A DNA stretch of 64,000 nt. Source: an uncultured Nitrososphaerota archaeon (lineage in GTDB: Archaea; Thermoproteota; Nitrososphaeria; Nitrososphaerales; CADDZS01). The translations under genes were made by a program, and so were the position numbers. The notes below the pieces were generated by a model, which saw only the letters and a program-made list of their open reading frames with translations, did not search any database and was not told the origin of the DNA. Position 1 is the first letter of the stretch, and the number at the start of each line of letters is the position of its first letter. Of this stretch, positions 5,424-55,930 are shown piece after piece. The stretch spans positions 192,001 through 256,000 of the forward strand of contig CAWCYI010000004.1 in assembly GCA_963799845.1 (NCBI GenBank). Direction: 5' to 3'.

Positions 5424-5433
5424 GTTGATACAA

Positions 5434-5907: not shown

Positions 5908-5913
5908 CTCGAA

Positions 5914-6408: not shown

Positions 6409-6409
6409 C

Positions 6410-9268: not shown

Positions 9269-9280
9269 TTCGAGTCTCCA

Positions 9281-10252: not shown

Positions 10253-10263
10253 TCAGGGGCGTC

Positions 10264-10560
10264 TTGTGCACCTTCTGCAATACTCATCTTGTCTCACAAA
10301 GAGATCGTAACGAGAAATTCTTCAATGGGGAAGAAATGTCGGACGATGAGATACTTGACTACTTACGAACGCAAGAAATGTTGGTAAAATCTTTTCCGGA
10401 AGAGTTCAATTCTGAAAATTATGCAGATGAAAGCCCATTTGATGTGCCGAACGGTAGAATTCGTATCTTGAACGCTTATCGCAACAAATCAGGAAGACTC
10501 GTTGTCGTTTTTCGAAGATTGGACGAGGAAGATACATTTCCCAGAGATCTAAAAGCATAA
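10264..10560 (+). CDS. Hypothetical protein (may continue the previous ORF)
   Basis: 98-aa ORF starting with CTFC. Confidence 0.45.
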   Translation: MCTFCNTHLVSQRDRNEKFFNGEEMSDDEILDYLRTQEMLVKSFPEEFNSENYADESPFDVPNGRIRILNAYRNKSGRLVVVFRRLDEEDTFPRDLKA

Positions 10561-10677
10561 CCAAGAACTCGGATGTTCCAAATTAACTTTTCAATTCTCT
10601 GAACTTGGATAATATATTCCAGTACGAATATTTCGAATCCTATAGTTTAGATCTTAGAATGGGCCAATTACTGTCGT

Positions 10678-12241: not shown

Positions 12242-12423
12242 ATCTCGTAGACTAAATTAACAGAAAAATTAGAGGATATTAAACTGGAGTACGCAGTTTT
12301 GGTTAGTTCTCTCATGCGATTTCTCCCACCATTGTTCGAAATTAGAATCAGAGAGGGAAATTATTCCAGTACGAATCTTTCGAGTACCAAAATTTACAGC
12401 TTAGTTAGGGCCAACACCCTTTT

Positions 12424-14628: not shown

Positions 14629-14692
14629 TGTACGGACCCGTTTGGGATTTCTAACACTGACATGGGTTTGGAAGGGGACCACTTGTTATCTA

Positions 14693-20513: not shown

Positions 20514-21624
20514 AAATTATTAGACTGAAAGGGCCACAGACCTAGACATTCTCATTTTTGGCCAACTTCCCTTCCTATCTCAGGTTGTATGTCTCGATTA
20601 CAGGCACCGAAGGAGATTGTTGAAGAGGCTTATAGAGAGGAGAGGGACGCAAACGTAAGCAAGAGGATATTCCTCGTTCTGAAGGTCAAGTACGAGGGTG
20701 TCCCGGCGTCGCACGTAGCAAGGGAAGTTCACCGGCACAAATCATGGACGACACCGTGGCTTAGACGTTTCGAGAAAGATGGGCTAGAAGGACTCAAGAC
20801 GATGGAAAGGAGCGGGAGACCTCCGAAGCTCGATCACAACAAGTTCATTGCGGTGAAGAGGAAGGTCGTGAAGAACGAATGCGGCTGGACCGTGAAGGAG
20901 GTCAGGGAGATGATCCGCAAGGAAGCAGACGTGGCATACACTGAGAGACACATCTACAGGTTGATGCAGAAGTGGGGAGTGAGAGCAATTGTCCCTGACA
21001 AGAGGTTACTTCACAAGGCTTCCCTCGAAGAGAGGCTCGAATTTAAAAAAGGACCGCAAGACTCCTCAGGAATATCCCGGAAGGCTTCACCGTAGCATCC
21101 GAAGACGAATCAATCTTCGTCCAGAACATAGAAACCAAAAGGGTGTGGGCGGTCAAAGGGATTCGACCGATTCGGATTGTGTCAGGCTCGCACGGCAACA
21201 CCGTGGTGTTTGGAGCGATCAGCCTGGACGGGACACAAATCTTCAGGCAGTACGAGAAATTCAATGGCGAGACATTCCTCGACTACCTGAAGAAGGTGCA
21301 CAGGAAGTTTGGATCACTCTATCTCTTCCTTGACAAAGCAAGGCAACACCACAAAACCAGGATCGTAACTGATTATTTGGGTAAGAACAGGAAGACTCTC
21401 AGAGTCAGATGGATCCCGACAGCTTCGCCAGAGTTCAACATGATGGAGGAGTGTTGGCGCGAGGGTGAGAAGGATCTCTCAAGGCTTCCAACCTTTCCGA
21501 CGTCATTGAAAGAACTGAAATCAATCCTGGCAGAATACTATCGAACGCGAAGGTTTTGCTCGCATCTTGACATGAAGAAATTCCTTCTGACCAACAGGTG
21601 TCTATGAACTTATGTCGGCCAGGT
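20501..21624 (+). mobile_element. IS630-family insertion sequence, copy 2 (1124 bp), inverted relative to copy 1
   Basis: Same TIRs, length and translated ORFs; TA flanks at 20499-500 and 21625-26. Confidence 0.93.
20589..21607 (+). CDS. IS630 transposase (programmed -1 frameshift at A6G 21045-21051)
   Basis: Identical translation to copy 1. Confidence 0.88.
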
Positions 21625-21678
21625 TAGTTCTGTGTCTCTAATATTGATGTTAACCAATTTTTGATCTCACCTTGCATT

Positions 21679-23529
21679 TCATACTTCAATCTCAAACAAT
21701 CTTGAACTATCTATTCCAAAAATGTCTACAATTTTTAGAACGATGGCGTAGCGTCCACTTTTCTTATAGTCATATTCGCCAGATTTGAGACTCAACTTAG
21801 GTCTTCCGGGTGTTCGGTAGCAGGACCACAGATTCATGAATGTATCCTTCTTAAAATCGTAATCGACAGCCCAATAGTCGATCAAGTCAGACCAGTGTTT
21901 TATCTTCACATTTTGACTTACCAGTTCAGTGTTTGGTATCGCGAAGTCCAATAATTCGATATGAATCGTTCTATTCCGTACATTTGTCTTTGCTTTTATG
22001 TAAGCTAGGTCGTAGAAATTAATGTCTTCTTTTTTTGGTATATCTGCTTGGATCAATTCGTTAGGAATGACAAGAAGTCTAAGCTTAATTCCTTGCTTTC
22101 TTGCTTCAATTTTCACCAGATCATCTAATCCCATTTCCCATTCCCAACCGAGAATGTGGAGTTCTGTTTGTTTAGCATCAAGACACTCGGACAGAGCTGA
22201 ATTGACTTCATCTATTGTGACCGGGGAGTCAACGGCGCCGACATGGACTAGAGCGCCGCTCTTTCTTCCGTGAATGAAACGAAATCCAGAAATCGGCTGC
22301 GCTTTGTATAATTTCAAAATGAAAGCAAGATACTGGTAAAGCACGGTTCGATTATCTTTTGATGAAAAATTCGTACTTTGCCAAATCTGGCGTTCATATC
22401 TTCCAAGGTTCAATATTTCAAAGGGTTTACAATCCTCGATTTCCAGAAGACGTTTTCTCGTCGTATGAATTGCAAAACGACTTATATCACAACCAATCCA
22501 CCTTCTGCCTAGTTTTTCGGCAACCGCTAAAGTAGTTCCGGAGCCGGAGAAAAAATCAGCAACTATCGAGTTCTCATTTGATGCAGCCTTTATCAGTACA
22601 TTCAACAAAGCTTCGGGTTTCTGTGTAGGATAATTCAGTCTCTCTCCTGATGTAGAAGCCATAACAGGTACATCAATAACATCGTTGGCTCGTTTTCCTT
22701 CGTCCCTTGGGTAGGTTTTGCCATAGTATACTGTTCCATCGGTTCTCCTTCTTTTTATCAGAGCATATTTCTCGCCTTTTTCATCGACTTTATTATATCG
22801 CTTCATATCAGTGTCTTTGTAGTCGACAAACACATCATTCCAAATGAAGTTCTGTCCTTTGGAATACCAGAAAATATTTTCATGCGCACGCTGAAATCCC
22901 TTTTTGGTCTCTGTTCCTCTAAATCCTTTATTCCAAATAATCTCATCCAAGAAATGTTCTTTTCCAAAAATCTCGTCTAAAATTACCTTCACGTAGTGGC
23001 CGACATGGTGATCCAAGTGAACAAAAATACTACCGTTTTCCGTGAGAAATTCCCGCATTAAGGACAGTCTGTCATACATCATCTGCATATAGGAGGAAAG
23101 TCCGTTTCCCCAAGTATCGTTGTAGACTTTTAGTTCAATTGCAGAAGGACTTTTTGTTACATTCTCCTCGCCTATCCCTGTTCGAAAAGAAAAATCCGCA
23201 CCAGTTGCAAATGGCGGATCTATGTAAATTAGATCTATCTTTCCAGCATAATTCTCAAGAAGAGATGAAATGATGTACTTGTTTTCTCCCCAAATTAACT
23301 TGTTTTTCCATCCGGTTTCAAAGGATTGTCCTTGATCGCCTGTCCAAACGTCGAAAAGAGAGTGTTGGATTCCAGAACTCTTTCTTGATTCGCGATTAAC
23401 CGTGCTTTCGTTAATGGTCTCAATAATTTGTAAAGGAAGGTTAACTCGTTTGATTTCATGCAGCTTTCCAGGTTCAACAAACTTATCTGACCATACCAGC
23501 TCAGTATTCCCAATTTCCAAGTTTGTCAA
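21679..23529 (-). CDS. mod: Type III R-M DNA methyltransferase (Mod), copy B
   Basis: IYIDPPF, YPTQKPE and DFFSGSGTT; paralogous to copy A with a different central segment. Confidence 0.9.
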   Translation of the reverse strand: MTNLEIGNTELVWSDKFVEPGKLHEIKRVNLPLQIIETINESTVNRESRKSSGIQHSLFDVWTGDQGQSFETGWKNKLIWGENKYIISSLLENYAGKIDLIYIDPPFATGADFSFRTGIGEENVTKSPSAIELKVYNDTWGNGLSSYMQMMYDRLSLMREFLTENGSIFVHLDHHVGHYVKVILDEIFGKEHFLDEIIWNKGFRGTETKKGFQRAHENIFWYSKGQNFIWNDVFVDYKDTDMKRYNKVDEKGEKYALIKRRRTDGTVYYGKTYPRDEGKRANDVIDVPVMASTSGERLNYPTQKPEALLNVLIKAASNENSIVADFFSGSGTTLAVAEKLGRRWIGCDISRFAIHTTRKRLLEIEDCKPFEILNLGRYERQIWQSTNFSSKDNRTVLYQYLAFILKLYKAQPISGFRFIHGRKSGALVHVGAVDSPVTIDEVNSALSECLDAKQTELHILGWEWEMGLDDLVKIEARKQGIKLRLLVIPNELIQADIPKKEDINFYDLAYIKAKTNVRNRTIHIELLDFAIPNTELVSQNVKIKHWSDLIDYWAVDYDFKKDTFMNLWSCYRTPGRPKLSLKSGEYDYKKSGRYAIVLKIVDIFGIDSSRLFEIEV

Positions 23530-37562: not shown

Positions 37563-38488
37563 TTATCTAGTGTCTCGGAAATGGCCACCAGCAAGATGTC
37601 TTGAGAGGCCAACACCACGCCGCACCTGCCACATTTGATGCTCTCTAGAAATGCTGCGTTCGGTAGTTTCAACAATTTCTTTGAAATATGGTTCTGTAGA
37701 GACTGTTTGCAGTTCTTTTTTTAGCTCCTCTAGGAGTCGCGCAGTATACGAATATGGTTCTACGAGTTCTGCATACTTCCTGCTCTGCGTCCACGCGACC
37801 ATACTTGAAACTATCGTCGCGATTAGACCAAGAACCGCTTCCGATCTAATAACTGCTTCAACATATCCATAAATCGCTATGGCGATTCCAGCAGTCTGAA
37901 TCGCGGTTGCAAAAGAGCTGTAAATGAGAGAAAGGCGCTTATCATTCGTAGCTTTTTTCTGTACCACTTGATTTGATCTTCAATTCTCTGTTCATCGTAG
38001 ATTGACCTTTTCGCTTCCCAGGGCAAGGCTCGTAGGGACTGCATTTCACTAGAGATGTCGTTTCCCCTCGGGCTGTCTTTTGATTGTTTATTCCTCCCTC
38101 GAGCACTGTAACCCGACCTGGCATTGCGAACTTCTTCGAGAAAGATCTGATCTGCTTTTGACGAATCCTCCAGAGGGCCGGTCGCCATAGAGTACTGCCA
38201 TTCAAGACTCTTGACTGTTTCTGCAATCGCACGCGCTTGAAACCAGATGTCTTCAAAATGTGTGACTTGCAGTGTGATTTGTGCAATGATTCCCACCAAA
38301 AACAGGAATATGAACGAATCAAAAATATTCTGCGAGCTGAACACTGGCGGTTGAATGAAACTAGACGCAGAGACTGTCGAGATGGCAATGGATGATCCAA
38401 GAATCGATAGGACAAGAAATTTTACATTTCGCTGGGCTTTTTGGGAAATCCTGTCGAATTGCTCATGCGTATTGGTAACATTGACCAA
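37563..38488 (-). CDS. SLATT/DUF4231 transmembrane effector (frameshift at ~37955)
   Basis: WFQARAIAETVKSLEWQY, YDEQRIEDQIKWY and ISREHQMW motifs across two overlapping ORFs. Confidence 0.8.
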
Positions 38489-38539
38489 GACTCTCGCATA
38501 TTCCTATGTGTTGCATTTACGGGACATAGTGCACACTTT

Positions 38540-39760
38540 TCACCGAGAACTGGATATCGAAATTTCTTTTGCAACCCGATCGCAGGCCTCCTTGAATCCA
38601 TCTTGCTCGTATTCTATTCTTTCAATTGGGCCGATCATAAATCCAGGTTCTACGCCTTTCTCTACAATAGGAATTACTTTCTTGTCATGCTCGACAGCGA
38701 TAGCAACTTCCTGTTCGATTGCTCCTGATGGATTCGCCTTTGAGTAAATGGCGACTAGGTAGTCGGATTCAAGAATTTTTTTTCTTACTTTCTCTTGAAT
38801 AGATGAACCCAAGTGGATAGAATCCTGTGCGGCATATGAACTGATACCGTGTGCTTTCAGGGCGTCCTGCAAGACATTTTTGAGATTTTCATCTTTGAAT
38901 GAATGGCTTATGAAAACTAGTGCCGCAGATTGGGTTTCTCGACGCGGTGAACTCTGAATAATAGTTGTACCGTAAACCCCCTTTAACGCTTTTTCAATAT
39001 TTTTTGCTTCGTCGCCCGATTTAACGGAGCTGCCTAGTTTGATAATTTTCCACCCGGAATTCACTTTGAGCTTGGGCAGGAAATCAGAGATTACCACATT
39101 GCTGTAATAGCTCAGAAAAGTCTCCATCGGACAATCGCTCGTCACAGTGAATGTTGCCTGACCTGCCGTGTTCAGAAACTTTCCAAGAGCTAAACACAGC
39201 GCGTTTCTGCCAGTGTACCCCGTCTTGTACAAGACAAATGCTTTCGAATCAATGCTCTCTGATAATATGGACACAAGTCTATTTGCGGATTCTTGGGGGA
39301 TCATCGATTGCATCTTGGAAATGTCGGCGTCATCAACACCTTCGGACCATGAGACGTTCAGTTTTGGAATTGCCCCGATGGGAACATGTCCTTTCGCAGG
39401 TTCAGAGCTTATTAGGGCGTTTTCAACATTTTTGAAAGCGAGGCCATCTGAAAGCAAGTCGACGGGAATGGACACGATTGTGCATACGATACCATCTCGA
39501 CCAAGGTCGTCTAATCTCTGACGTTTGTAGATCCTAGAAAAATAGATTGGACCCGCTGATGAAGGTTTGCTGATTACCCTTGCTTCAACCTGAAGATCCG
39601 AAAAGACACCCTCATCGTAAGGACACAGGATATCTTTATGCGCCGCCAGAAACGCGTCTTCTATTACGCCATCCGTTTTTGCCCTGATGGTGTAACCTTT
39701 GTAGGGCAGAGGGGCATAGATCAGATAATCCAATGAGGCGTTTTTCGTGTGGCTGCTCAA
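38540..39760 (-). CDS. Unknown (GAP1-N-like?) N-terminal domain fused to a C-terminal TIR domain
   Basis: VFISHSFKD...SDYLVAIYS...IEQEVAIA..HDKKVIPI is a TIR with the catalytic Glu; N-terminal assignment is tentative (DDLGRDG). Confidence 0.75.
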   Translation of the reverse strand: MSSHTKNASLDYLIYAPLPYKGYTIRAKTDGVIEDAFLAAHKDILCPYDEGVFSDLQVEARVISKPSSAGPIYFSRIYKRQRLDDLGRDGIVCTIVSIPVDLLSDGLAFKNVENALISSEPAKGHVPIGAIPKLNVSWSEGVDDADISKMQSMIPQESANRLVSILSESIDSKAFVLYKTGYTGRNALCLALGKFLNTAGQATFTVTSDCPMETFLSYYSNVVISDFLPKLKVNSGWKIIKLGSSVKSGDEAKNIEKALKGVYGTTIIQSSPRRETQSAALVFISHSFKDENLKNVLQDALKAHGISSYAAQDSIHLGSSIQEKVRKKILESDYLVAIYSKANPSGAIEQEVAIAVEHDKKVIPIVEKGVEPGFMIGPIERIEYEQDGFKEACDRVAKEISISSSR

Positions 39761-40797: not shown

Positions 40798-41340
40798 TGT
40801 TGATAATTCTTAACCTCACATAGAATTAGGGCTTTATGTGCCACGGGGTGCTTCATTAACCGCTTGTACTTTAACATTAGCTCTCTCAACAAGAGCTTGG
40901 CCCCTGTGAGAAATCAGCTTCTTTAGTTTAACGTCACAAGGGAAACATGAAGGGGCAGTCACCTATCCGCTCACAATGAAGGAGCAATTTGCAGTTTGGT
41001 ATCCAGGCTGCTTCAATCAAGTTATTGCGCCCTTTCTCTTTTTGAGGAGACGCAACAAGCTCCCGAGAGCGCTATTCTAAAACCTAATCGCAATACGGCC
41101 TTCGGTTCCGCAAGACCGGCGGGAATCGTGGTTATGCTGGTTAATGATTGCTTAAAGTCACTTTTTTCAGCAGCGAGGGATCCCGACTAAACTTCGCAAT
41201 ACAATGTTGGAGGTCATTAAGCTGTTCGTCAGATAAGACACCAGGGAACGTGTTCTCCATCGTCTCTCTGAGCTGGATGATGCATGGACCACACCACCAG
41301 TGAGAAGCTGGTTCATTATCTATGGTGACTCCGATGTCGT

Positions 41341-41588
41341 ATCTCTTAATTTAGACACCGAAAAAGGAAAAAAGTCTCAAACCCTCCCCCTCCTTCACCC
41401 CCGAAAGCTCGATTTCCCGCCCCTAATTTCAAAAAGGAAAAAAGCTCGCCTGCACCTCTTTGCGACTAATGAGGTGCGATTTAGGGCGCCGGTCTGTTAG
41501 ATTGTACCGCTGGCTAGTCGGGGGGAAAAATCATTCCCGCATGCTATTACCTTTGGCGAAAAAAAAGGGGGTCTATGTATGCAGCCCC
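41341..41588. other. Putative right terminus of the upstream large element
   Basis: Non-coding; AAAAAGGAAAAAAG repeated at 41361 and 41431; ends in a GGGG-N13-CCCC hairpin abutting the TSD. Confidence 0.4.
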
Positions 41589-41598
41589 ACCATTTTTA
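41586..41598 (+). repeat. Target-site duplication, left copy (CCCACCATTTTTA)
   Basis: Identical 13-mer at 46772-46784, each directly abutting a TIR. Confidence 0.9.
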
Positions 41599-41725
41599 CT
41601 TTTTTTTTACTAGGACGACTTCAACTGATACTACTACTTCTACTACTATAGCGACTCTCGTCCTCTCTCGACTCTTCTCTTCTTCTCTTCTCTCGCTACT
41701 TCAGAGAGAGATATTATCTAGAATG
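41599..41725 (+). repeat. Left terminal inverted repeat (127 bp)
   Basis: CTTTTTTTTTACTAGGACGAC...ATATTATCTAGAATG is the reverse complement of 46645-46771. Confidence 0.95.
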
Positions 41726-41921
41726 TAAGTGTTAGTTAGGGCATAGGGAGAATCTCAGAATCGTATAGAGAAATTTCCTCTAGTACTGCTAGAGGATTTT
41801 TCTCTTCCACTATGATTGTTTTGGTAGAATAAGATTTTATTTCACAAAAATATTTCGTGAATTGCGTACCATCAGCTGAGCTGTACGATTGTAGAGTACG
41901 CCTCTCCGTGTCTTCTGCACT

Positions 41922-42152
41922 TCAAGAGATGAATTTCTTGGGCCTTCCCATAACTTTTCTGCGCAGTGATTTTTTTCCATTTTGATTTACTCTAGCCGCG
42001 CAGGAATAAGAACAGAATCGAGCAAGGTGAGACTTGTACGGAAATTCTTTCTTGCATTCTGGATTTGCGCAAAAACGAGTACCCAGATATTTTGATCTTC
42101 TTCCGTGCCTATGAGACTCGTACTCGTTTTGTTGATTATCGAATATGCTCAA
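41922..42152 (-). CDS. Small Zn-finger protein (C-x4-C...FCSYSC)
   Basis: FCANPECKKEF...RFCSYSC; basic tail. Confidence 0.6.
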   Translation of the reverse strand: MSIFDNQQNEYESHRHGRRSKYLGTRFCANPECKKEFPYKSHLARFCSYSCAARVNQNGKKSLRRKVMGRPKKFIS

Positions 42153-42168
42153 GTTCTACAACCACGCC

Positions 42169-42498
42169 TTACTTTCTTTTTACGAATCTTCCGCGTTTAT
42201 CGCACCTTACTGTTACGGTCTTTCCCCGTCTCTTGAAGGTGAAAATACCAGAGAAAGGTGCGCCTCGTTCTTCTTTCAATTGCTCTAGTTTTTGCTGTTT
42301 AGTAATCGGGCCTCTTCTGACAGGAATCCCACGCTTTTCGGCTTCGATTCTCAACCCCCTTTCTTGCTGTGCGCTGTTTATCCATCTCTTGCCAGTCCAT
42401 CTAACGAATTGTCTCCTCAGATCGTCGTAATCCTCGTACTCTTTCACTCCCACGGATTCTTCGTACCGTGCAAATAGTGCTGGAAATGTCTCCGTCAA
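42169..42498 (-). CDS. Highly basic hypothetical protein (paralogue at 47866-48193)
   Basis: Shared INSAQQERGLRIEAEKRGIP and VTVR.DK.GRFVKR. Confidence 0.75.
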   Translation of the reverse strand: MTETFPALFARYEESVGVKEYEDYDDLRRQFVRWTGKRWINSAQQERGLRIEAEKRGIPVRRGPITKQQKLEQLKEERGAPFSGIFTFKRRGKTVTVRCDKRGRFVKRK

Positions 42499-43007
42499 AT
42501 CTTTTCACCAAACTGCATTACTCTGGGCGCGAATTTCTCTATGCCCGTGGTATAGGTTACTTTCACAATTGTTTTTGGTGGCTCGATGTAGTAAGATCTT
42601 AAGATCGAAACGCACTTTTGTTTGGGTCGATCTATCTTCTTGGAAATGCGAAGAGTAGCAGCTTTTCGCTTGATAGTCCATATCAAAAATCCAATATCTA
42701 TTACCTCTAAGGAATCGACTAGTATCATCAGCATTTTCTTGAAAGTAACTTTATTCCAGCACCAACAATGATAGGAATCGTTCTGTCGTCTTCTATCGGT
42801 TGAAATGTAGATATTGGATAGCTTGTATTTTGCCTGAACCTTTGAAAGTACTGTTTTCAACCTCGATAGCTTCACTCTTTCACAATCCCAGAATATTGCA
42901 TATAGTCCACGTCCTAATTTGTTGGTAATTCCTTCTAGGGTTTGTACGTCCGAGACGGTAAAGAAATAAACTCGGTTATCTATCGTCTTCTTGAATTGGA
43001 ATCTCAT
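42495..43007 (-). CDS. Putative minimal archaeo-eukaryotic primase (AEP)-fold protein
   Basis: Motif I AIFWDCE (D41/E43), motif II ST...SYH (H80), motif III VID (D104) and downstream LR, in AEP order and spacing. Confidence 0.6.
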   Translation of the reverse strand: MRFQFKKTIDNRVYFFTVSDVQTLEGITNKLGRGLYAIFWDCERVKLSRLKTVLSKVQAKYKLSNIYISTDRRRQNDSYHCWCWNKVTFKKMLMILVDSLEVIDIGFLIWTIKRKAATLRISKKIDRPKQKCVSILRSYYIEPPKTIVKVTYTTGIEKFAPRVMQFGEKI

Positions 43008-43168
43008 TTCTTTTCATACCTGATAGTAGGTGTTCCGCATTTACCGCATTGAGGAGTTACCACTGTAAAGCTGTACGGCTTTCCGTTCTTTGATGTTCCT
43101 TCATGTTTTGAGACGTTGTACACGATTGAAGTAATGTCTAGTAGCTGATCGCACTTTGTACAATTCAA
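43004..43168 (-). CDS. 54-aa Zn-ribbon protein (not in the ORF track)
   Basis: TTG start; MNCTKCDQLLDITSIVYNVSKHEGTSKNGKPYSFTVVTPQCGKCGTPTIRYEKK; 4-nt overlaps with both neighbours. Confidence 0.7.
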   Translation of the reverse strand: MNCTKCDQLLDITSIVYNVSKHEGTSKNGKPYSFTVVTPQCGKCGTPTIRYEKK

Positions 43169-43512
43169 TCCTTCTTTTCACTCCCAGGTTTGATGTGATT
43201 CCCGTTAGCATCAGTTGGAAGCTCGCCGTCGTCTTCTACTTCACGTTGATAATGGTTAGGCATTCTGGGCTTGTAGCCTTTGGGCCACTGAATCTGAACG
43301 ATATACCTTATTTCACCTTCAGTAAAGTGTCCTGAGTGTTCTAGTATGTACACTTTCAGAAAACGTTCATCTATCTCGTTAAGGGTACCTCGCAAGGTTC
43401 TTCCTTTTGAAAAAATAATTTCAATATGCTTGCCAATACAGTCCTTGAGGGAATCAACGCGATAACGGGTAGAATCGTATTCGTCTCCAACCCATTCTTT
43501 TTTTCGAGTCAT
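43165..43512 (-). CDS. Sm/Lsm-like protein
   Basis: LKDCIGKHIEIIFSKGRTLRGTLNEIDERFLKVYI matches the Sm1 motif pattern. Confidence 0.55.
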   Translation of the reverse strand: MTRKKEWVGDEYDSTRYRVDSLKDCIGKHIEIIFSKGRTLRGTLNEIDERFLKVYILEHSGHFTEGEIRYIVQIQWPKGYKPRMPNHYQREVEDDGELPTDANGNHIKPGSEKKD

Positions 43513-43718
43513 TTCGTCTTTAACTCCTCGGCCTTCTTCTCCAGCATCCTGATCCAGGAATACTTTATCCGCTTGCCTTTTGTGGAAATTATCGAGTCGT
43601 ACTCTAGTTTCTTAAAAGGAACATCCTCAGAACCTTTTGAATAGTAGTAGATTTTGAGTACCGTCCCTTCCTTTACGGGATTTTCTTCAAACCACTGATC
43701 TACGTCTTGCCAACGCAT
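43509..43718 (-). CDS. Hypothetical protein, first gene of the element's leftward operon
   Basis: ATGA overlap with the next gene. Confidence 0.6.
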   Translation of the reverse strand: MRWQDVDQWFEENPVKEGTVLKIYYYSKGSEDVPFKKLEYDSIISTKGKRIKYSWIRMLEKKAEELKTK

Positions 43719-43784
43719 AATTATTACTCTGATATATCTCTAAGAGAGACAATCGTATATACACTCTAGGCGTATACACGGTCT

Positions 43785-44436
43785 ATGCCACAAAAAGCGT
43801 ATAGACGACAGCCTAGCCCCATAACTTGGAAGTACGGCGATATAGAGATCAAAATTCTTCGTGCCCTTGTAGAAAAGGGCCCGTTATCGGCTCAAAAAAT
43901 CAGTAAAGACCTCGGCATTAGGTACGATACGATTCACGAAAAGCTGAACAAAGTGACTACTTCTGGATGGAATAATAGAAAAGGTAAGAACTGAAACTCC
44001 GGTAGAAGGTGGGAGAGAGTACGTATTCTGGCTAACCTTGAGAGGCGATTTGCTATCTGTCTGTTTGGGTCTAAAATCTGAGGATGTTAAGAAAACTGCG
44101 ATCAATAACAAAATCCCGATTCGAAAATGGATTTCTTTCGCAATGGATTTTATGTCAAGCCTAAGTAACAACAAATCGCGTCTTCGGTACTATCTGTCGT
44201 TAGACGGTGCAATCGACAAACAAATTTCGAATGATGAGGCTATAGAGCAAATTGGAACTATGATTTCTTTTGATAAAGACGCTAAGCGTGCTTTTGCCTC
44301 GGCATTCAAAAAGAACCCAGAGTTTACGAGATTAACAAACGAAAAACTGCAAAAGTTGAAACCCAAGCTCATCAAGGGAATCAATGAGGCCGACTTATCG
44401 AAAAATGTAACTTTTCTTGAGGACGATCAAAATTGA
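43785..44436 (+). CDS. Winged-HTH regulator (frameshift at ~43955)
   Basis: ILRALVEKGPLSAQKISKDLGIRYDTIHEKL continues in the +1 frame as LLLDGIIEKVR...YVFWLTLRG into ORF 44038-44436. Confidence 0.7.
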
Positions 44437-45552
44437 ATCCACTTTACATTAACGAGAAGGTATGTAGTCTCTCAATCGAGAACTTCCATCTCAAAATATG
44501 GAATCCAGAAGAGAAGAGAATAGTACATCTTTTCCGGCCTCGAAAAATTCCGTACGACTCGATCATAATTCAAAGGAATAGAGGCTCTATAAGCTTCGCA
44601 GCTATAGACTGGTTAATGAGACACGCTATTTCTCTCACGATTCTAACGTGGGAAGGGAATATTATGTCTCAATTCTTACCCGAAGCTACAGCTTCACCTT
44701 CGCTAAGAATTGCTCAATATCGAGCATACCTAGACCGAGAAATTCATACTAGAATAGTAAAGTCAATAATTGAAACAAAGATTCGAAGACAGCAAGATTT
44801 TCTAAAGTCTCTATCTCCTTACTTCGATTTAGAAATCCCAGGGTTCAAACCAATTAGCACTTTGAGTTTAGACTTCATGCGAAATATTGAAGCTAGATAT
44901 GCCGAAGAATATTTCACTCAGTACGGAAAAATCTGTAACACTTTAGGATATGAGTTTGAAAACCGTTCGAGACACTCAAACCAACACGCAAACGATCTAG
45001 TAAATTCTCTCCTCAATTATGGATATGCAATCTTGAAAGTGTACGTTCGAAGAGCTATAAACTCTGTAGGCTTTGACAATACTATTTCTTTTGTCCATTA
45101 TCTCAGCAAAGGAGAAAGCTCTCTAACTTATGATTTGATGGAACTTTGGCGTACGAATATCGATCACGCTGTACTTCAATCACTCGAAGAAATGAAAAAG
45201 ACTAAGGGCCGTAAATTTGGTTTTACGGATAGGTACGACGTTGAAATTACTTCTGATACTGCTAAGCTTCTTTTCGAAAAGATACGATTGAATCTAAGCC
45301 TTGAAGAGATAATTATCAATTCGAGAAAACTGGCAAAATATTTTCTTCGAGAGAATAGAAATCTCAGTTTCAAGCTTAAACCCGTTCAGACTAGAAGAAA
45401 AGATACTATCCTCAGCTAAAGATTTTATTAAGACAAAATCATTCCGAGAACTAGGAATGAATAAGTCAACTCTGTGGTACCAAAAGAGAAGACTGGAAGA
45501 GACTGGCTCTATACGAATTTACAATAAGACTAGACAGTATTTTGTAAAGTGA
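44433..45552 (+). CDS. cas1: Casposase (solo Cas1); C-terminal HTH lies in the +1 frame after ~45410
   Basis: NIEARYAEEYF, NSLLNYGY, FVHY and LTYDLME; +1 frame 45418-45552 reads KDFIKTKSFRELGMNKSTLWYQKRRL...RIYNKTRQYFVK, homologous to the tail of Cas1 at 10678. Confidence 0.9.
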
Positions 45553-45581
45553 TTTGCTAACTGATCACTGAATAAGCCGAC

Positions 45582-46520
45582 CTATTGAGCTATAAGCGAA
45601 CCTTCTACAGATCCCCCGTTATCTAAGTCGATAACGTAGGTGTAGACTTTTCCCTGCGTTATGGAGATTTGCTCCCCGTTTGTAACAGGATAAAACGTGA
45701 AAGAGCTAACTGAACTTCCTTTCAATATTCCGCAATCCGTACAAGCAGCTGTGTGATCGGATTGGAAAATGATAAGGTTCGAGTTGCTAGTCGCAGCTGA
45801 GTTATTATCCCATGAGCTTGAGACACCATACAAAGAAACTCCAGTAATATAGCTAGGTGCTCCAAAATTATCTATAGATATGGCAAAATAAGATGAAGCT
45901 GCGAGAGTAGAATTTGCTGTCAGTCCACCGTAAAGTGTAGCTGAATAGAGAGTTGACCCGCTTGGGGGAGTGTAAGTAAAGGAGTAAGTCTTCCCATCTG
46001 GATAAAGAATGCTAAGAATAACGTCAGAATAAGCTGGAACATTACTAGGGGTTGATCCGGTACAATCAAAACTATACTGAGGTAGAATTGTCCCGTCGAA
46101 TGTACAAGTAGTCTGGCCATATACAGCGGTACCATTTCCGAAGTAAATTTCTATCGTTCCACCTGAGACGATAGTGTCCCCAGTATTCGTAAATGTAATC
46201 GAATATCCTGAACCTGAACAAGAATCATCTACGCTCACGCATGAAGACTCATACGTCATATTGAGAGGCGGTAAATTTGGATCGGTATGAAACTGCGTTG
46301 TAATAGCAGAGTGGGAATTCTCTGAAGTAGTGGTTATTCGCGAAGATACTGAGGCAATAGTTGATGAAAAAACTGTTGAAGTAATTTGACTTACAGAAGG
46401 TATTGGAGAGGTTGTTAGTGCGATTGAAGTATAGGTATATGAAAGATAAAGATAACCGCCTATTACAACCCAAACTGCCAAGACAGAAACAGCAATTACG
46501 ATATGCTTCTTGCTTGGCAA
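45582..46520 (-). CDS. Secreted/surface Ser/Thr-rich passenger protein
   Basis: N-terminal TM, S/T linker, beta-rich domains. Confidence 0.7.
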   Translation of the reverse strand: MPSKKHIVIAVSVLAVWVVIGGYLYLSYTYTSIALTTSPIPSVSQITSTVFSSTIASVSSRITTTSENSHSAITTQFHTDPNLPPLNMTYESSCVSVDDSCSGSGYSITFTNTGDTIVSGGTIEIYFGNGTAVYGQTTCTFDGTILPQYSFDCTGSTPSNVPAYSDVILSILYPDGKTYSFTYTPPSGSTLYSATLYGGLTANSTLAASSYFAISIDNFGAPSYITGVSLYGVSSSWDNNSAATSNSNLIIFQSDHTAACTDCGILKGSSVSSFTFYPVTNGEQISITQGKVYTYVIDLDNGGSVEGSLIAQ

Positions 46521-46644
46521 TTTCTCTAAAACAGTCTTAATGCAAATTTTTGAATATCTTTTATGAATCCAGCATTAAGATGTGATATTCAAGTAGCTCT
46601 AATCTGAATGCGAAATTTGCTTTTTAATTATTCCGAGTTTAGGG

Positions 46645-46771
46645 CATTCTAGATAATATCTCTCTCTGAAGTAGCGAGAGAAGAGAAGAAGAGAAGAGTC
46701 GAGAGAGGACGAGAGTCGCTATAGTAGTAGAAGTAGTAGTATCAGTTGAAGTCGTCCTAGTAAAAAAAAAG
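46645..46771 (-). repeat. Right terminal inverted repeat (127 bp)
   Basis: Reverse complement of 41599-41725. Confidence 0.95.
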
Positions 46772-46784
46772 CCCACCATTTTTA
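46772..46784 (+). repeat. Target-site duplication, right copy
   Basis: CCCACCATTTTTA. Confidence 0.9.
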
Positions 46785-46907
46785 GTTTTTTTTTAACAAA
46801 CCTACTCTCTCTCTTATTCTCTTTTATTTGTAAATGTAAGTAAGTAAATGTAAGTTAGTATCTGCGTATGCGAATGAATGAACGCACACAAAGAGAGTTA
46901 GGGCGAT

Positions 46908-47813
46908 TTAGATGGTCTGTGGATATTCGTCAGTCTGAGTGGACATACTTATACTAGATTTTCGTTTTCTTGTCAAAAACTGGTAAGTAATGACCAGTGC
47001 TACCAATGAGGCTACTAATACAGTAGTGATCACAATGAGCAAATAGACCGAATCTGATGTAAAAATCCATTCATTATACAAACTCGGAGTGGCAATTTGG
47101 GGGAGTATTTGCAGGAGAGTTATGAGGACAACAATGATTCCTGTTTTTATTAGGCTCTGAATGGTATCTATGTCCGTCTTCTCAGTCTTTTTGGGGTCGT
47201 GTTTGGGGTCAGGCCCTAGGGCTAGATCGACAAGTTCGACTAATGTGAGTGATAAGACCACAACAAGTACCAATGCAATTGTATTTGCCGAATTAGTGAT
47301 GATTGTGAGGACTTGAAAATTAAACTGAAACATTTGAACGACAGCAAATCCAATGCTCCTCACTGCAGACCAGATGGCATAGAAACCGACTAGCAAGAAA
47401 ATCGTATTGAGAATGATTGTCTTAGCTCTCTTGCCTGCAAAAGAAACATAGTAATCGAGCGCTGTCTTTGTGCTTTTTCTCAGGACAATGACCGCACTTA
47501 TCAATCCGATTGTTGCAAACAATGACAGCCATGCATCCAAATCAAAACTAAGAAATGATAATTCCTTATGATGGGTTATTGTTGTCGTGGAATGTGTAGC
47601 AACACTTTGGTTTATTGTAACAGTTGTAAGAGTGGTAATTGTTGTATTGACTTGGACACTAGGAGTCAACGAAGAATGAAAACCAGCACTTGCCACAAGT
47701 AAGACAAACAGAACTAAAGAAACAAAAAATAGAACGCCCGCCAATGCAGACATTCGTATTCTTTGTGCATAGGAAGAAATCCTAAGAACAAATTTCAATG
47801 ATTTCTGCATCAA
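46908..47813 (-). CDS. Multi-pass membrane protein (passenger)
   Basis: Several hydrophobic segments and a Thr-rich loop. Confidence 0.65.
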   Translation of the reverse strand: MMQKSLKFVLRISSYAQRIRMSALAGVLFFVSLVLFVLLVASAGFHSSLTPSVQVNTTITTLTTVTINQSVATHSTTTITHHKELSFLSFDLDAWLSLFATIGLISAVIVLRKSTKTALDYYVSFAGKRAKTIILNTIFLLVGFYAIWSAVRSIGFAVVQMFQFNFQVLTIITNSANTIALVLVVVLSLTLVELVDLALGPDPKHDPKKTEKTDIDTIQSLIKTGIIVVLITLLQILPQIATPSLYNEWIFTSDSVYLLIVITTVLVASLVALVITYQFLTRKRKSSISMSTQTDEYPQTI

Positions 47814-47865
47814 TCTTGAGCTGACAATGAAATTGAGATTTTTCTACCTATTATCTATTGGGCTT

Positions 47866-48193
47866 TTACCTCTTCACGAATCGGCCATGCTTATCTCGTC
47901 TTACTGTTACTCTCTTGCCACGTCTAACAAAACTGAATATTCCGCAGAAAGGCTCGCCTCTTTTCTCTCTTAATCTCTCTAACTTTTCTAGTTTGGTTTC
48001 AGGCCTAATTCTGAAAGGAATCCCTCTTTTTTCAGCTTCAATTCTCAAACCTCTTTCTTGCTGTGCGCTGTTAATGCAGCGTTTGCCTGCAAATCTCACG
48101 AAATCCGTTTTAAGATCGGCATAATCTTCGTACTCTTTTTCTCCGACCTTTTCTTCGAACCTCTCAAAGACCGCAGGGAATGTTTTCCGTCAA
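47866..48193 (-). CDS. Paralogue of 42169-42498 (1-nt frameshift just after the TTG start)
   Basis: Restored N-terminus MTETFPAVFERFEEKVGEKEYEDYADL vs MTETFPALFARYEESVGVKEYEDYDDL. Confidence 0.7.
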
Positions 48194-48205
48194 ATTCTTT
48201 CTCTG

Positions 48206-48418
48206 TTAACGGCGCTTGACCACGCTCGGATCGTAATTTATTTTCACCAGATAGCCGAGAAAGTTTGTTGTAACTGTTTGGGCACTCTCGTCTTTTCTGC
48301 CTGCGAATTCTAACGCCGGTGTTGTTTGCTTGAGCTGTCTTGTCAGTTCACTGATTGTTCCTTCGTACTTCACTAATTGTATTCGTTGTTGTACAATTGT
48401 TCTGTTGTATTGTGACAC
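48206..48418 (-). CDS. Hypothetical protein
   Basis: 70-aa ORF co-oriented with the paralogue. Confidence 0.4.
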   Translation of the reverse strand: MSQYNRTIVQQRIQLVKYEGTISELTRQLKQTTPALEFAGRKDESAQTVTTNFLGYLVKINYDPSVVKRR

Positions 48419-48427
48419 TCACAAAAA

Positions 48428-48450
48428 CCGCCCTTTAGTTTTTTGGGCGG
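48428..48450. other. GC hairpin CCGCCC-N11-GGGCGG (terminator/operator-like)
   Basis: Inverted repeat visible in the sequence. Confidence 0.3.
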
Positions 48451-48602
48451 ATTTTCAAGAAGCGACAAAAACTCAGAATCATCGATATCCCTGACAACGA
48501 TTATGAGAATTTGATTTTTGTCAATGACACATAATTTGAGACAAAGACTGGATTTTCGTCATTCGTTAGCGACAGTTTCTGTGAGAATTCACGAAGGATT
48601 TA

Positions 48603-48812
48603 GTGACAACAACTTTGAGAAGCGACAGCTTCATCCTACGTGGCGGAGATCCAAATTTTGCACTAAAGGAAGTAAAGGAATTTATTAATCTCTCTGAACA
48701 AGAACAGGAAAAACGTTTCAGCATTTTCGGAAAGGAGCTTGAGAAACAAGGTCGTGATTCGTCTCACGCGTTTCTTTCCCTCGTACATGATGAACTAACT
48801 GGTAAGGGTTAG
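48603..48812 (+). CDS. Hypothetical protein
   Basis: 69-aa ORF. Confidence 0.35.
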   Translation: MTTTLRSDSFILRGGDPNFALKEVKEFINLSEQEQEKRFSIFGKELEKQGRDSSHAFLSLVHDELTGKG

Positions 48813-49126
48813 AAAGCTGTAGGGCAGACAGAAAACGGGAAGAAAAGGTCTGTGAAAAACGAAAATATCGAAGATGATCGCAGGGAAGCCACAAAGATCA
48901 CGTTGACACCCGTACACTAAGTGTTTAGTTGTTCTCTTGAGGATCTTTAAGGGGACGCGACCATCTAGCTTGAATCGTCGTGCGGAATGTAGGATTTGAA
49001 CCCCAATTTTACTAGTAAGGCATTCTTGGGAAATGGATAGAATGAGATTTGAACCTAATTAGAGCCTCATCACAGAAGTCTCGACTAGGCTTTTATAACA
49101 GCTGAATAGTCATCAAAAATGAGATT

Positions 49127-51043
49127 TTGAAAGTTATATCAAGAAAAGGTTTTTTTGTAATCATTTGTGGCGTTCTACTCCTAACTAACAGTCTGGGAGT
49201 ACTTCTTCCTCGTCTCAATTCGAGCGCAAGTTCAAGTACCGTGCTTCGTATGACCCTCGTTGTTCCTCCGAATAGTATCAATCCGCTTACCCTGACTACA
49301 GGGAATTCTGGCGGGATTCTAATTGGAATGGAGTATTATGGATCTCCAATCGCATCTCCCAACGGTACTTCGGATAATTCCATTGCTGTCACCGACTGGA
49401 TATCTCACAATCAGAATTATACCCAGTGGACATTTAACATAAAACCAGGGATGAAGTGGTCGAATGGCAATAACATAACTTCCGCGGATATCCTTGCGAC
49501 CTTCGGGCCGAATTTCGGATTCAATTCTACCTACGATTACCTCGGCATGGGCTCAGAAGTCACAAACGAGACTGCTCTAAACAGCTCGGCAGTAGTCTTC
49601 ACTTTGAATGCCCCGGATGCGCACTGGTCTGACAAATTCAACTGGGATCTCTACAGCCCCGTCATGCCCGCATCATTTATTCAGCAACAGACTGTTGCAG
49701 GAAGCAACTTTGGTACGAATGTCGTGGCAGGCCCATTCTATACTAGCAACTATCAATCGGGTCAAACGCAGATGGTACTGCTGCGAAATCAGTATTTCCT
49801 GCCGCAGCCAAAAGTAAGTGAAATCGATATCAATTTCGTGGAATCGCTTTCTCTTACCACGAGCATTTTGCAATCTGGATCAACGGACTTGGCTCCAATT
49901 GAACCCTCGAATGCTCAGGCAGTATTGAAGAATCCAAACATCCATCTTTTGGATGAGAAGGGGCTTTACGTGAGTTCTCTTCAGTATAACGATTCGATAT
50001 ACCCCTATAACATGACTAATTTCAGACAAGCGCTTGCATTTGGAATCAACCAGTCTGCCTTCGTGGAACAGGCGCTGAACGGTTACGGTATCACCGGATA
50101 TTCTGCGGAGGGAATTGTCTCGCCTTCTGCAAGTCTGTTGTACAATTCAAAGGAAGCTCAATATGATTTCAACCAGTCAAAATCGCTTTCGCTTCTTAGC
50201 GCAATCGGAATAACCAAGGGTTCAGATGGATTTCTACATTATCCAAATGGAACTGCTGTATCTCTCTCGCTCTGGACTGACACGGACAATACTGAAGACA
50301 CTGTGGGAGCTCCTGTCCTGGTGAATAATCTTCAACAGCTCGGCTTCAAAGTTAATCTTCAAACGACATCAGTTTCAAATATTGTCGGCGACTACTCGAG
50401 CAATACGAACGGGATTAGAAGTGCAATTATTTTAGCAACAACCAATCCGCCAGTTTGGGGCAATGCGTATCTCGATAGTCTCCCTGCATGGGACGTCTAC
50501 TGGCTAGCGACTGTCCCGAATCATTACTGGGAGTACCCGCCGAGCGTGGATGCTGAATACCACGGTAATTACAGCGCATTCCTCGGGACCGCAAATGCAA
50601 CTCTGGATCAGCAATACTTGGACAATATTCAGGCTATGAACGCTCAGTACTTGCCAACAATTGTCCTCGCGTATCCCGATGCGTTGTGGGCTTACAACAC
50701 CCAGTACTGGACAAATTGGCCGACGGGTTACGTCGAGTTTGGAGCTCAGATTATGAATAATACGGCGTTTGTCAACTTGGAACCAGTCGGGGCAATTACT
50801 AGTTCATCATCGCAATCACTATCAAGTACATCATCAAGCTCAACAAGTTCATCAACATACAGTCCGACAACCTCGTCCACACTAGTCACCACGAACCAAT
50901 CTACAACTACGTCAACATCATCAGCCGCAACATCCTCGACTTCGTCCGGACCGAGCTATCTTACTTACGGTGCAATAGCTGCAGTTGTAGTCATCATAGT
51001 CGGAGGCGCGGCGGTATATTTCCTGAGACGAAAACCTAGATGA
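49127..51043 (+). CDS. ABC transporter substrate-binding protein (DppA/OppA family)
   Basis: WTFNIKPGMKWSNGNNITSADI, GPF and FRQALAFGIN; S/T linker with C-terminal TM. Confidence 0.9.
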   Translation: MKVISRKGFFVIICGVLLLTNSLGVLLPRLNSSASSSTVLRMTLVVPPNSINPLTLTTGNSGGILIGMEYYGSPIASPNGTSDNSIAVTDWISHNQNYTQWTFNIKPGMKWSNGNNITSADILATFGPNFGFNSTYDYLGMGSEVTNETALNSSAVVFTLNAPDAHWSDKFNWDLYSPVMPASFIQQQTVAGSNFGTNVVAGPFYTSNYQSGQTQMVLLRNQYFLPQPKVSEIDINFVESLSLTTSILQSGSTDLAPIEPSNAQAVLKNPNIHLLDEKGLYVSSLQYNDSIYPYNMTNFRQALAFGINQSAFVEQALNGYGITGYSAEGIVSPSASLLYNSKEAQYDFNQSKSLSLLSAIGITKGSDGFLHYPNGTAVSLSLWTDTDNTEDTVGAPVLVNNLQQLGFKVNLQTTSVSNIVGDYSSNTNGIRSAIILATTNPPVWGNAYLDSLPAWDVYWLATVPNHYWEYPPSVDAEYHGNYSAFLGTANATLDQQYLDNIQAMNAQYLPTIVLAYPDALWAYNTQYWTNWPTGYVEFGAQIMNNTAFVNLEPVGAITSSSSQSLSSTSSSSTSSSTYSPTTSSTLVTTNQSTTTSTSSAATSSTSSGPSYLTYGAIAAVVVIIVGGAAVYFLRRKPR

Positions 51044-55004: not shown

Positions 55005-55930
55005 CCACATTGATGAGCATCTAGTCAGCCTATTCCGAAAATACCATCCAAAATCTTGGACGAGGTCTTCATTCGAGGGATCATCCAGGATGAGATTATC
55101 TATTCGGTAACCTGGTGTGCACACAGTTTTTACTAGTAAATAGCAAGTGCGGGAGGTGGGAAATGAACTTTAGGTTCGAATCGGTAAACTAATGGGAATT
55201 TTCGGCAAACCCAGCCAACTCAACAAGACCTAAGTCTACGCTCCACAAATCACCCTGGTTCAAATCCATCCGACCCCAATTAGCCATAACTGTCGCTTAG
55301 ATGCCTTTACGTGCTTCCCGCTCGTGCTCTCTCTACTCCCCCAGCCCTCACAGCCAGAGGCACACAGATAGCCCCAGCCCCACACTGACACTAAGCACAC
55401 GCACACATTAGACTAATAGAATCGAGTGATCGGAAACTCTCTTTGTGAACCGGCTTTACACAGGTGAGAAATGTGAAAAACCTGTGCGTCTGGAAAGGGC
55501 AACTATCGTTCGAGAGTGACAAGCAATCGGTGAAGAGCTGGAATTAGGGCGTGCTAGAACGCATTGAATAAAGAGGTAGCCGGTTCCATTAGAATTGATG
55601 AATAACGGGAAAAATCCGGCAGAAATAGTAGCGTTCTCGCCAAACGTGTTTCCTGCGTTAGTCCCTGTGTAAAAAACCACAATCACAGAATAGTTTTGAT
55701 TTCAGGATGGTACGGTGTCCAACGCTTCAACCGTTGTGACCACATATTCGATTCCCACACAAACGAATTTGCTAGCAAAAACGTGTTACCGCGTCAGTGA
55801 ATTTGCAAATCAGAGTTAGAAACGGGATTCGCGCACGAAGTTACTAGTAAACCCAGATTCCAAACCCCTCCAACGAGAACTTCAGGGAAAGTTAATATTA
55901 TCAGAGAATTCTTTCGGCGATGAGAATACA

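Follow-up and report, generated by a model that had tools for sequence, protein, structure and literature searches.

The DNA analysed here, a stretch of 64,000 nucleotides from a soil Nitrososphaerales-type archaeon (G000:C4:192001-256000; called the window, and positions without a contig prefix are its coordinates), carries two complete casposons, transposons with a Cas1-family integrase (casposase), and the remnant of a third, set off from one another by copies of the same 13-mer. The source genome, G000, is a metagenome assembly of 4.6 Mb in 9 contigs (86.7% complete, 4.9% contamination), and the left part of the array continues on the same contig beyond the window. Contigs assembled from two short-read runs of one study (X1 and X2; depth 2-6) served for comparison: where they do not cover the locus they are uninformative, and the runs may derive from the genome's own sample, so that they check the assembler and not the biology. 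The features of the array, from left to right, are:

1-41585: in-window part of the large casposon; the whole is G000:C4:167574-233585, 66,012 bp, and starts 24,426 bp left of window base 1
7133-9268, plus strand: family B DNA polymerase (PolB), protein-primed type (Pfam DNA_pol_B_2, PF03175, E 3.3e-10; phrog_11768, DNA polymerase, E 3.2e-16)
10678-11844, plus strand: casposase of the large casposon, a Cas1 homologue with a C-terminal helix-turn-helix (HTH) (Pfam Cas_Cas1, E 1.9e-44)
41361-41585: right terminal inverted repeat (TIR) of the large casposon (blastn against its left end)
41586-41598, plus strand: target-site duplication (TSD), copy 2, CCCACCATTTTTA (exact match, shuffles, X1 contig)
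41599-46771: mini-casposon, 5,173 bp, with no polymerase-sized open reading frame (ORF) (perfect inverted ends, ORF list)
41599-41725: left TIR of the mini-casposon, 127 nt, 100% complementary
42169-42498, minus strand: 109-aa gene common to the mini-casposon and the remnant (73% over 104 aa to 47866-48180; 46% in the sibling element at locus L109)
42495-43007, minus strand: 170-aa gene conserved in the sibling mini-casposon (83% identical in L109, 46% in P0123)
44433-45552, plus strand: casposase of the mini-casposon (Pfam Cas_Cas1, E 1.7e-44; frame in the assembly 44433-45419, break near 45413)
46645-46771: right TIR of the mini-casposon, 127 nt, 100% complementary
46772-46784, plus strand: TSD, copy 3 (exact match, shuffles, X2 contig)
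46785-49126: left-end remnant of a third related element, ending at some point before the ABC-transporter gene starting at 49127
47866-48180, minus strand: homologue, in the remnant, of the mini-casposon 109-aa gene (73% identity, E 5e-52; DNA 71-73% over 300-333 nt)

A shared 13-mer borders the casposons

The original prediction, made from the window alone, held that one 13-mer lies on both sides of the mini-casposon. This was confirmed: CCCACCATTTTTA occurs exactly at 41586-41598 and 46772-46784, these are its only two matches in the window, and no copy was present in any of 100 shuffles. With two mismatches allowed, the window holds four matches, a number reached by 8 of the 100 shuffles and not significant; the two extra matches, at 12325 and 54754, were rejected as chance, one being intergenic without element-like flanks and the other lying within an ABC ATPase gene. 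Across the 4.6-Mb genome the exact 13-mer is found four times, and three of these four copies sit at element borders within 71 kb.

The remaining border copy (copy 1, C4:167561-167573) lies 24.4 kb left of the window and overlaps the 3′ end of a tRNA-Pro(GGG)-like gene, with ...GCCGGTTCAAATCCGGCCGACCCCA-CCA before it and CGCTGCATACATAGACCCCC... after it. The DNA after copy 1 is the reverse complement of the DNA abutting copy 2 (...GGGGGTCTATGTATGCAGC), and the left end of the large element (C4:167575-167769) matches its right end at 72.4% over 225 nt (225/196 nt, with indels; E 3.7e-27, blastn). The sequence abutting the left window copy (...CTATGTATGCAGC), which had been put forward as a putative end of a large casposon, is thus a genuine element end, by its match to the opposite end. 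Because the inverted ends and the same duplication bound it, C4:167574-233585 is one unit.

In the 13-mer, the three final acceptor bases are followed by the discriminator A, CCA and TTTTTA. The string GCAGCCCCACCA had been read as a tRNA acceptor end, and this was half right: CCCACCA does come from the tRNA (acceptor CCC, discriminator A, CCA), whereas GCAGC is the terminus of the large element, and the actual tRNA 3′ end reads ...CCGACCCCACCA. The proposed search upstream for a tRNA ending ...CCCCACCA and followed by another element end was positive, at C4:167416-167573.

The locus would therefore read: tRNA, 13-mer, 66-kb casposon, 13-mer, 5.2-kb casposon without PolB, 13-mer, truncated left end of a third element, host ABC-transporter operon. 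Of the up to three sequentially stacked elements that had been envisaged, two are complete units, each with a Cas_Cas1 casposase, inverted ends and the same duplication, and the third is a truncated remnant. We consider it very probable that the locus is a head-to-tail casposon array built by successive insertions at one tRNA-Pro(GGG)-like 3′ end.

The target is a tRNA-Pro-like gene

A scan of the window for a tRNA came back empty with both ARAGORN and Rfam, since the tRNA lies outside. The gene at C4:167416-167567 (C4:167416-167573 with the 13-mer) is 152 nt long, twice the normal length, and has a perfect 7-bp acceptor stem (GGGGTCG/CGACCCC), a D-arm and a perfect T-arm. Full-length copies are present at 81-92% identity in four of six other genomes of the genus, and in the remaining two only the ~33-nt 3′ end was matched. 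Aligning the copies in five genomes resolved four conserved blocks, three variable inserts and an anticodon arm of CCACC / CTGGGG.. / GGTGG. When the first insert (17 nt) was removed in silico, ARAGORN called a tRNA-Pro(GGG) with a canonical intron. Many alternative in-silico deletions gave other anticodons, so that enumeration by itself is not evidence; it is the comparison of five genomes together with the call after removal of one insert that points to a tRNA-Pro(GGG)-like gene.

Inserts of this kind are common in the genome. ARAGORN found 9 tRNAs without introns allowed and 35 with introns, and at least 10 of the 12 Rfam tRNA matches are stretched by inserts to about 90-140 nt. With tRNA genes so rich in introns, standard tRNA scans will overlook sites of integration in this lineage.

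A 39-nt stretch at 55240-55278 was also seen to be a decayed copy of the tRNA-Pro 3′ part (GCTCCACAAATC..GGTTCAAATCC..CCGACCCCA; 3 mismatches and a 2-nt insert). It sits 8.5 kb right of the array, past the ABC-transporter operon, with no 5′ half nearby; it may be an attR-like trace left by an older island, or else a dead tRNA copy. The adjoining 55280-55420 was tried as a fourth casposon end and rejected, because aligning it to the L109 TIR gave a score of 26, when 200 shuffles reached up to 28.

The mini-casposon carries an intact casposase and no polymerase

The largest ORFs of the mini-casposon encode 328 aa (372 aa when corrected), 312 aa and 170 aa, none of polymerase size. Homologous casposases are about 372 aa long, and in the assembly the C-terminal HTH of the mini-casposon enzyme is encoded just past the stop, in another frame. 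Relative to the X1 and X2 contigs, the assembly carries one surplus base at each of 41559, 41878, 43955 and 45413. Because the contigs of both runs lack the base at 45413, which restores the reading frame, the casposase gene is intact and the frameshift is an assembly error. With this base removed, the C-terminal HTH block ...ELGMNKSTLWYQ..K.L.E..S.RIYNK.R.YF is in frame and is found in both casposases of the array. These two enzymes are 35% identical to each other and about 33-39% identical to the nearest named archaeal casposases. For P0001, an 83% relative of the mini-casposon enzyme, the solved structure that matches best is M. mazei casposase 6OPM (E 1.2e-38), and the best CRISPR Cas1 follows at 4.7e-16.

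The small genes of the mini-casposon gave little in family searches: Pfam returned only a weak LSM match, and PHROGs only two weak matches, both for a 76-aa ORF. The 170-aa protein gave a weak Atlas lead to the archaeo-eukaryotic primase (AEP)-like family PF24387 (recognition 2109, below 2300). Its AlphaFold model did not resolve a fold (mean pLDDT 55.8), and Foldseek against the PDB returned no match at E<=0.001, only generic alpha/beta folds. From D-x-E, S-Y-H and D motifs in the alignment, one may guess that the protein is AEP-like.

Two irregularities appeared in the short-read contigs around this element. One X2 contig (depth 4.5) joins 41599-41814 to 46772-47127 in the opposite orientation, implying a flipped mini-element; the cause is either a genuine inversion over the 127-nt TIRs or an artefact of the de Bruijn graph. 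A loose end in X1 before 46813 carries 152 nt that are absent from genome G000.

A third unit begins directly after the last 13-mer

A related element end had been proposed to start at the base next to the right copy of the 13-mer. Its start was borne out, and its opposite end was not found. The third unit opens with G-T9-A, against C-T9-A in the mini-casposon, and continues into CT-rich DNA. The motif TTAGGGC lies 114 nt into it, compared with 138 nt in the mini-element, and the gene for the 109-aa protein recurs in it at 73% identity. No fourth 13-mer (<=3 mismatches) with a casposon-like end was found in the next 150 kb. We read the third unit as the truncated left part of an older relative.

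TTAGGGC is enriched in the window as a whole, with 19 copies against 4.08 expected, and none of 100 shuffles reached 19. It occurs 105-138 nt from all four element ends in the window, at 41481, 41736, 46639 and 46898; both copies in the mini-element run in the same direction, so the motif is not part of the inverted repeat.

The large casposon is a 66-kb element with mixed cargo

The casposon core of the large element (5356-11844) comprises four small ORFs, PolB, two further small ORFs and Cas1, and lies mid-element, between two blocks of mixed cargo of about 30 kb each. In alignment its casposase has the invariant residues E157, H229, D241 and E244 together with the C-terminal HTH block. The PolB is the only PF03175 match in the genome. 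A search of 1.84 billion representatives brought up 316 relatives at E<=1e-3, of which the best is 36% identical, and one relative, P0122, encoded on a 10.4-kb contig, reaches 78%; P0122 and two other relatives (P0125 and P0126) also match PF03175. Among 121 casposase-bearing loci fetched for comparison, tblastn gave no match to this PolB at E<1e-5, and only the PolB of L035, a family 2-like locus whose polymerase matches PF00136 and not PF03175, appeared at E 1e-3.

The regulators of the element are a TFIIB and a CBS-HTH protein. Its other cargo is of the defence and DNA-handling type: a PLD nuclease with an SNF2 helicase, an MBL-fold nuclease, a methyltransferase, a CHAT protease, a STAND-type ATPase, an HATPase_c_3 protein, an HNH nuclease (about 13 kb left of the core), an SMC-like ATPase, two N6/N4 DNA methylases, a UvrD-PD-(D/E)XK helicase-nuclease, a HerA-like ATPase, a resolvase-like nuclease, two SLATT proteins and a TIR-domain protein. 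Near the right end (37563-39760, minus strand), the SLATT_1 and SLATT_3/DUF4231 membrane proteins adjoin the TIR-domain protein, with a GTPase-like ORF alongside, as a defence-type set.

The element also contains two copies of an IS630-like insertion sequence (IS; DDE_3 and HTH ORFs) of 1,132 bp, 100% identical and inverted, at 14690-15821 and 20496-21627. The pair brackets a helicase and an N6/N4 DNA methylase in a composite-transposon-like layout, and a paralogous methylase lies just outside it (18859-19158 vs 21986-22285, 72% DNA identity).

Similar elements and stacks occur at other tRNA ends

The original prediction also looked to related genomes for variation in the number of elements. 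Related contigs do carry similar tRNA-Pro stacks with different occupancy. ARAGORN placed a tRNA-Pro within the fetched flanks of 10 of the 80 related loci scanned.

The closest case is L109, a metagenome contig with a 5.25-kb sibling element that has perfect 144-nt TIRs and encodes a casposase and a 170-aa protein each 83% identical to those of the mini-casposon. Its TSD of 13-15 bp (CCCATTTTCTATT..) starts at the same acceptor-stem CCC, here of a tRNA-Pro(CGG)-like gene, and the T-arm is identical. The order is again tRNA, TSD, element and second TSD, with a Cas1 C-terminal fragment 1.9 kb beyond. At L113 the element measures 4.69 kb, has TIRs of 103 nt and sits at a different tRNA 3′ end with a TSD of 14 bp; that of L110 spans at least 4.73 kb and carries perfect inverted repeats of at least 84 nt. 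Within each small element the TIRs are perfect, and between elements they are dissimilar. None of the three has a polymerase-sized ORF, which makes small casposons without PolB, of about 4.7-5.3 kb, a recurring form and not a one-off deletion.

Longer repeat series were found at L135, L136 and L137, metagenome contigs of three samples, probably of one population. Each has four TSD-like copies, namely a tRNA-3′-like piece ending CCCACCTTTTTAG followed by three copies of CCCACCATTTT, with inter-repeat segments of 0.98, 1.45 and 0.84 kb and a Cas1 remnant after the last copy. Directly next to the first CCCACCATTTT copy stands ...GTATGCAGC, a terminus that the large element also has at its right end. 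At L093 a Cas1 fragment lies 0.6-1 kb behind the same tRNA end, and the unpublished genome G001 has the same arrangement; these two may not be independent of each other.

Within G000 itself, a third Cas1 fragment was noticed at locus L006 (G000:C6:1748317-1748640, about 8317-8640 of the locus; model positions 178-281, one internal TGA) near a contig end. It is probably another decayed casposon, and a copy of an IS630-like element, like that in the window, lies directly after it.

Weighing alternative explanations

The likeliest alternative concerns the large element: the 66-kb unit may never have moved whole, an ordinary-size casposon having instead grown in place by acquiring IS elements, defence islands and other mobile DNA. 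We regard this as a serious possibility that nevertheless stays somewhat doubtful. The central position of the core between two 30-kb blocks of mixed cargo would suit it, as would the two identical IS630-like copies, and the thaumarchaeal casposons published so far are all stated to be under 20 kb (PMC6563490). It would be harder to reconcile with the interior of the unit, where no copy of the TIRs, no 13-mer with element-like flanks and no tyrosine recombinase was found and where the GC content is low throughout (43.2% overall); target duplications of nested insertions were examined for the IS pair only. A reduction of the array at its other end, with only two casposons integrated and the DNA past the third 13-mer being the native flank of the tRNA and its T-run a terminator, is improbable. 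Neither a right end nor a fourth 13-mer came to light there, a T-run is expected after a tRNA in any case, and past the T-run the ends of the mini-element and the third unit cannot be aligned except for a 20-nt CT-rich patch. Yet 46785-49126 has a GC content of 39.8%, like the mini-casposon (39.6%) and unlike the DNA to its right (48.9%; 49.9% in the left flank), it holds a 73%-identical counterpart of a mini-casposon gene, oriented alike with respect to the end, and TTAGGGC lies 114 nt from the end, against 105-138 nt at the three other ends. Moreover, the DNA following this tRNA differs again in each of four same-genus genomes.

Two further explanations would remove casposase activity, or the array itself, from the account. 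The 13-mers might be att sites of tyrosine or serine recombinase islands with the Cas1 genes as passengers, as tRNA 3′ ends are classical targets of such islands and the partial tRNA copy at 55240-55278 is attR-like. This is highly improbable: TIRs begin at the base beside the 13-mer, and recombinase islands lack such ends; no tyrosine recombinase (PF00589, E<=0.01) is encoded within C4:167574-247279, all four genome matches being elsewhere; a repeat of 13-14 bp fits the 14-15-bp TSDs given for casposons in the text of Beguin et al. (PMC5137440); and in sibling elements this geometry recurs at other tRNAs, with TSDs of other sequence. We give just as little credence to the tandem layout being an artefact of long-read metagenome assembly. 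The assembly does contain the four single-base indel errors listed above, and the X2 contig that connects the left inner side of the mini-element to copy 3 in the opposite orientation disagrees with it. However, an X1 contig bridges the copy-2 junction (41329-41795) without differences, an X2 contig runs from the TIR through copy 3 to 47127, and a loose end in the short-read data reproduces the junction of tRNA, copy 1 and large-element left end.

Several observations weigh against the array of successive insertions that we favour. No empty site was found in any relative, and the insertion itself was not directly seen; in the right flank (48300-49400), comparison with five same-genus genomes gave no synteny and one weak 41-nt match. 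Without editing, the tRNA gene was called neither by ARAGORN with introns, nor by Rfam on the genome, nor by Rfam at E<=10 on the gene, and its identity is deduced. The third unit presents one end only, as no inverted partner was found in 46986-50500 and local alignments of the four element ends scored <=25. Given its 72% TIRs and two IS copies, the large element may no longer be mobile, or may have reached its size in situ. At L135, the segments between the repeats lack TIRs, and one of them stops within an IS transposase gene exactly at the repeat, for which reason the L135-type segments are debris and not intact elements. Finally, the 39-nt tRNA copy hints at an older event of another kind at the locus.

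A possible route to the array

By analogy with the enzymes of A. boonei and M. mazei, the casposase would bind the inverted ends of its element and a target made up of the tRNA T-arm, acting like a leader, and the adjoining 13-14 bp. The two 3′-OH ends would then attack opposite strands 13-14 bp apart, and gap repair would duplicate the segment between them. The duplication would rebuild the tRNA 3′ end and leave an intact target beside the tRNA, so that the site could be used again. For A. boonei, Beguin et al. (2016, PMC5137440) describe a target of the 15-bp duplicated segment plus 18 bp upstream in the tRNA-Pro T-loop region, the upstream part being essential; according to the same text, successive casposons would each go in upstream of the one before, with a TSD in between, and Methanosarcina arrays are cited.

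Should the T-arm be required here as in A. boonei, every newcomer would land beside the tRNA, and the remnant would have come first, the mini-casposon second and the giant casposon last. The termini point weakly in the same direction. Taking the repeat as a 14-mer (CCCACCATTTTTAC) leaves copies 1 and 2 identical and makes the termini of the large element perfectly symmetric, while the mini-element's TIR opens with the 14th base of copy 2; the 14-mer fits, if weakly, an arrival of the large element after the mini-element. The most decayed unit is the most distal one both in this array and in L109, a gradient that likewise agrees, weakly, with the remnant being the oldest and the giant the newest. 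Against the array as a dated series stands the basis of this order, an analogy and a one-base argument with a 1-in-4 chance of coincidence.

Comparison with known casposons and CRISPR arrays

The array has the features of the casposon superfamily, that is, a Cas1-family integrase, TIRs and target duplication, with an own PolB in the large element only. In AciBoo-C1 (Aciduliprofundum boonei) and NitNCS1-C1 (Ca. Nitrosotalea okcheonensis), both of family 2, the sources describe a tRNA-Pro 3′ end as target, as here, and likewise a casposase with a C-terminal HTH and a T-arm directly upstream of the duplicated segment (PMC5137440, PMC6563490). In A. boonei, the tRNA overlaps the TSD by 5 of 15 bp (PMC5137440), and here by 7 of 13-14 bp, counting CCA. 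The elements described here differ from these two in the PF03175 polymerase of the large one, the lack of a polymerase in the mini-element, and their sizes of 66 kb and 5.2 kb.

The large element fits neither casposon family cleanly. It has the C-terminal HTH of the casposase and the tRNA 3′ end target of family 2, but its PolB belongs to PF03175 and its HNH gene lies outside the core, unlike the PolB/HNH/HTH core of that family. With family 1 it shares a protein-primed PolB (pPolB), as judged by the PF03175 match; the HTH-less casposase and ef-2 target of that family are not found, since an HTH is present and the target is a tRNA. The element thus combines an HTH casposase and a tRNA-Pro target (family 2-like) with a pPolB-type polymerase (family 1-like), and as far as tested it matches neither family's definition. 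The one characterised family 1 casposase, from Ca. N. koreensis AR1, is described as lacking the HTH (PMC8464041), in contrast to both casposases here.

Tandem casposons sharing a TSD have been reported in Methanosarcina sp. 2.H.T.1A.3 and related strains (tRNA-Leu) and in 2.H.A.1B.4, and the source text reads them as reuse of one site (PMC4779613). Those tandem elements are close relatives of each other, whereas here the two complete units are 13-fold apart in size and have casposases 35% identical, and behind them comes a third, truncated unit. A tandem thaumarchaeal pair with a pPolB-type polymerase, NitNF5-C1 and NitNF5-C2 of Ca. Nitrosopumilus adriaticus (family 1), resembles the large element further in its small uncharacterised genes just upstream of PolB and in nuclease and defence-type cargo (PMC6563490). 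According to the same text, its target is the protein gene ef-2 and its elements are under 20 kb; here the target is a tRNA.

The original prediction compared the array to a proto-CRISPR, that is, a forerunner of a CRISPR array. The analogy is not new, as it is already drawn in the text of Beguin et al. (2016, PMC5137440). What the array shares with the leader-repeat-spacer arrays of CRISPR is an integrase of the Cas1 family, an upstream determinant that stays fixed, duplication of a short segment and a predicted polarised growth. The repeats here, however, are 13-14 bp long and the inserts are whole transposons of 5-66 kb, and Cas2, effector genes and signs of transcription or processing were neither looked for nor found. 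As for CRISPR arrays proper, Rfam found no CRISPR family in the window and a repeat search showed no array; no dedicated CRISPR-array finder was run.

The chief evidence from nature that a Cas1-type integrase can reuse a leader-like site with one repeat per insertion comes from tandem casposons, and such reuse with repeat duplication links transposition to the capture of CRISPR spacers. Tandem casposons and their CRISPR likeness having been published, the stacking itself is a new example of a known phenomenon. To it the present locus adds a three-unit stack, in which two casposases 35% identical used the same 13 bases. Possibly new are the size of the large element, the family of PolB-less elements of about 4.7-5.3 kb at tRNA 3′ ends, and the mix of HTH casposase, tRNA-Pro target and pPolB. 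In open-access text, supplements not covered, no description of PolB-less or ~66-kb casposons was found. The locus suggests two extremes, a 66-kb casposon loaded with defence genes and a minimal, polymerase-free casposon with perfect ends. If the small elements are active, they would provide a compact, site-specific Cas1 integration system suited to biochemistry.

A bolder and rather unlikely proposal is that the PolB-less elements form a natural family of Cas1-only transposons that insert repeatedly beside a leader-like T-arm and, with their decayed copies, build arrays of short repeats (up to four repeat copies in L135). Such arrays would be living cases of the intermediate postulated between a self-replicating casposon and a CRISPR adaptation module with its repeat array, the small elements perhaps being copied in trans by the giant's pPolB or by their own AEP-like protein, and the giant would perhaps be a mobile defence island.

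A dispersed repeat near the right limit of the remnant

A 37-nt hairpin-like repeat, GCGGAATGT.GGATTTGAACCCCAATTT, lies at 48982-49018. Five further copies, 92-95% identical, are present in the genome at C4:928496, C4:1374965, C4:1377209, C7:11985 and C8:4598, and the palindrome TTTACTAGTAAA often flanks them.

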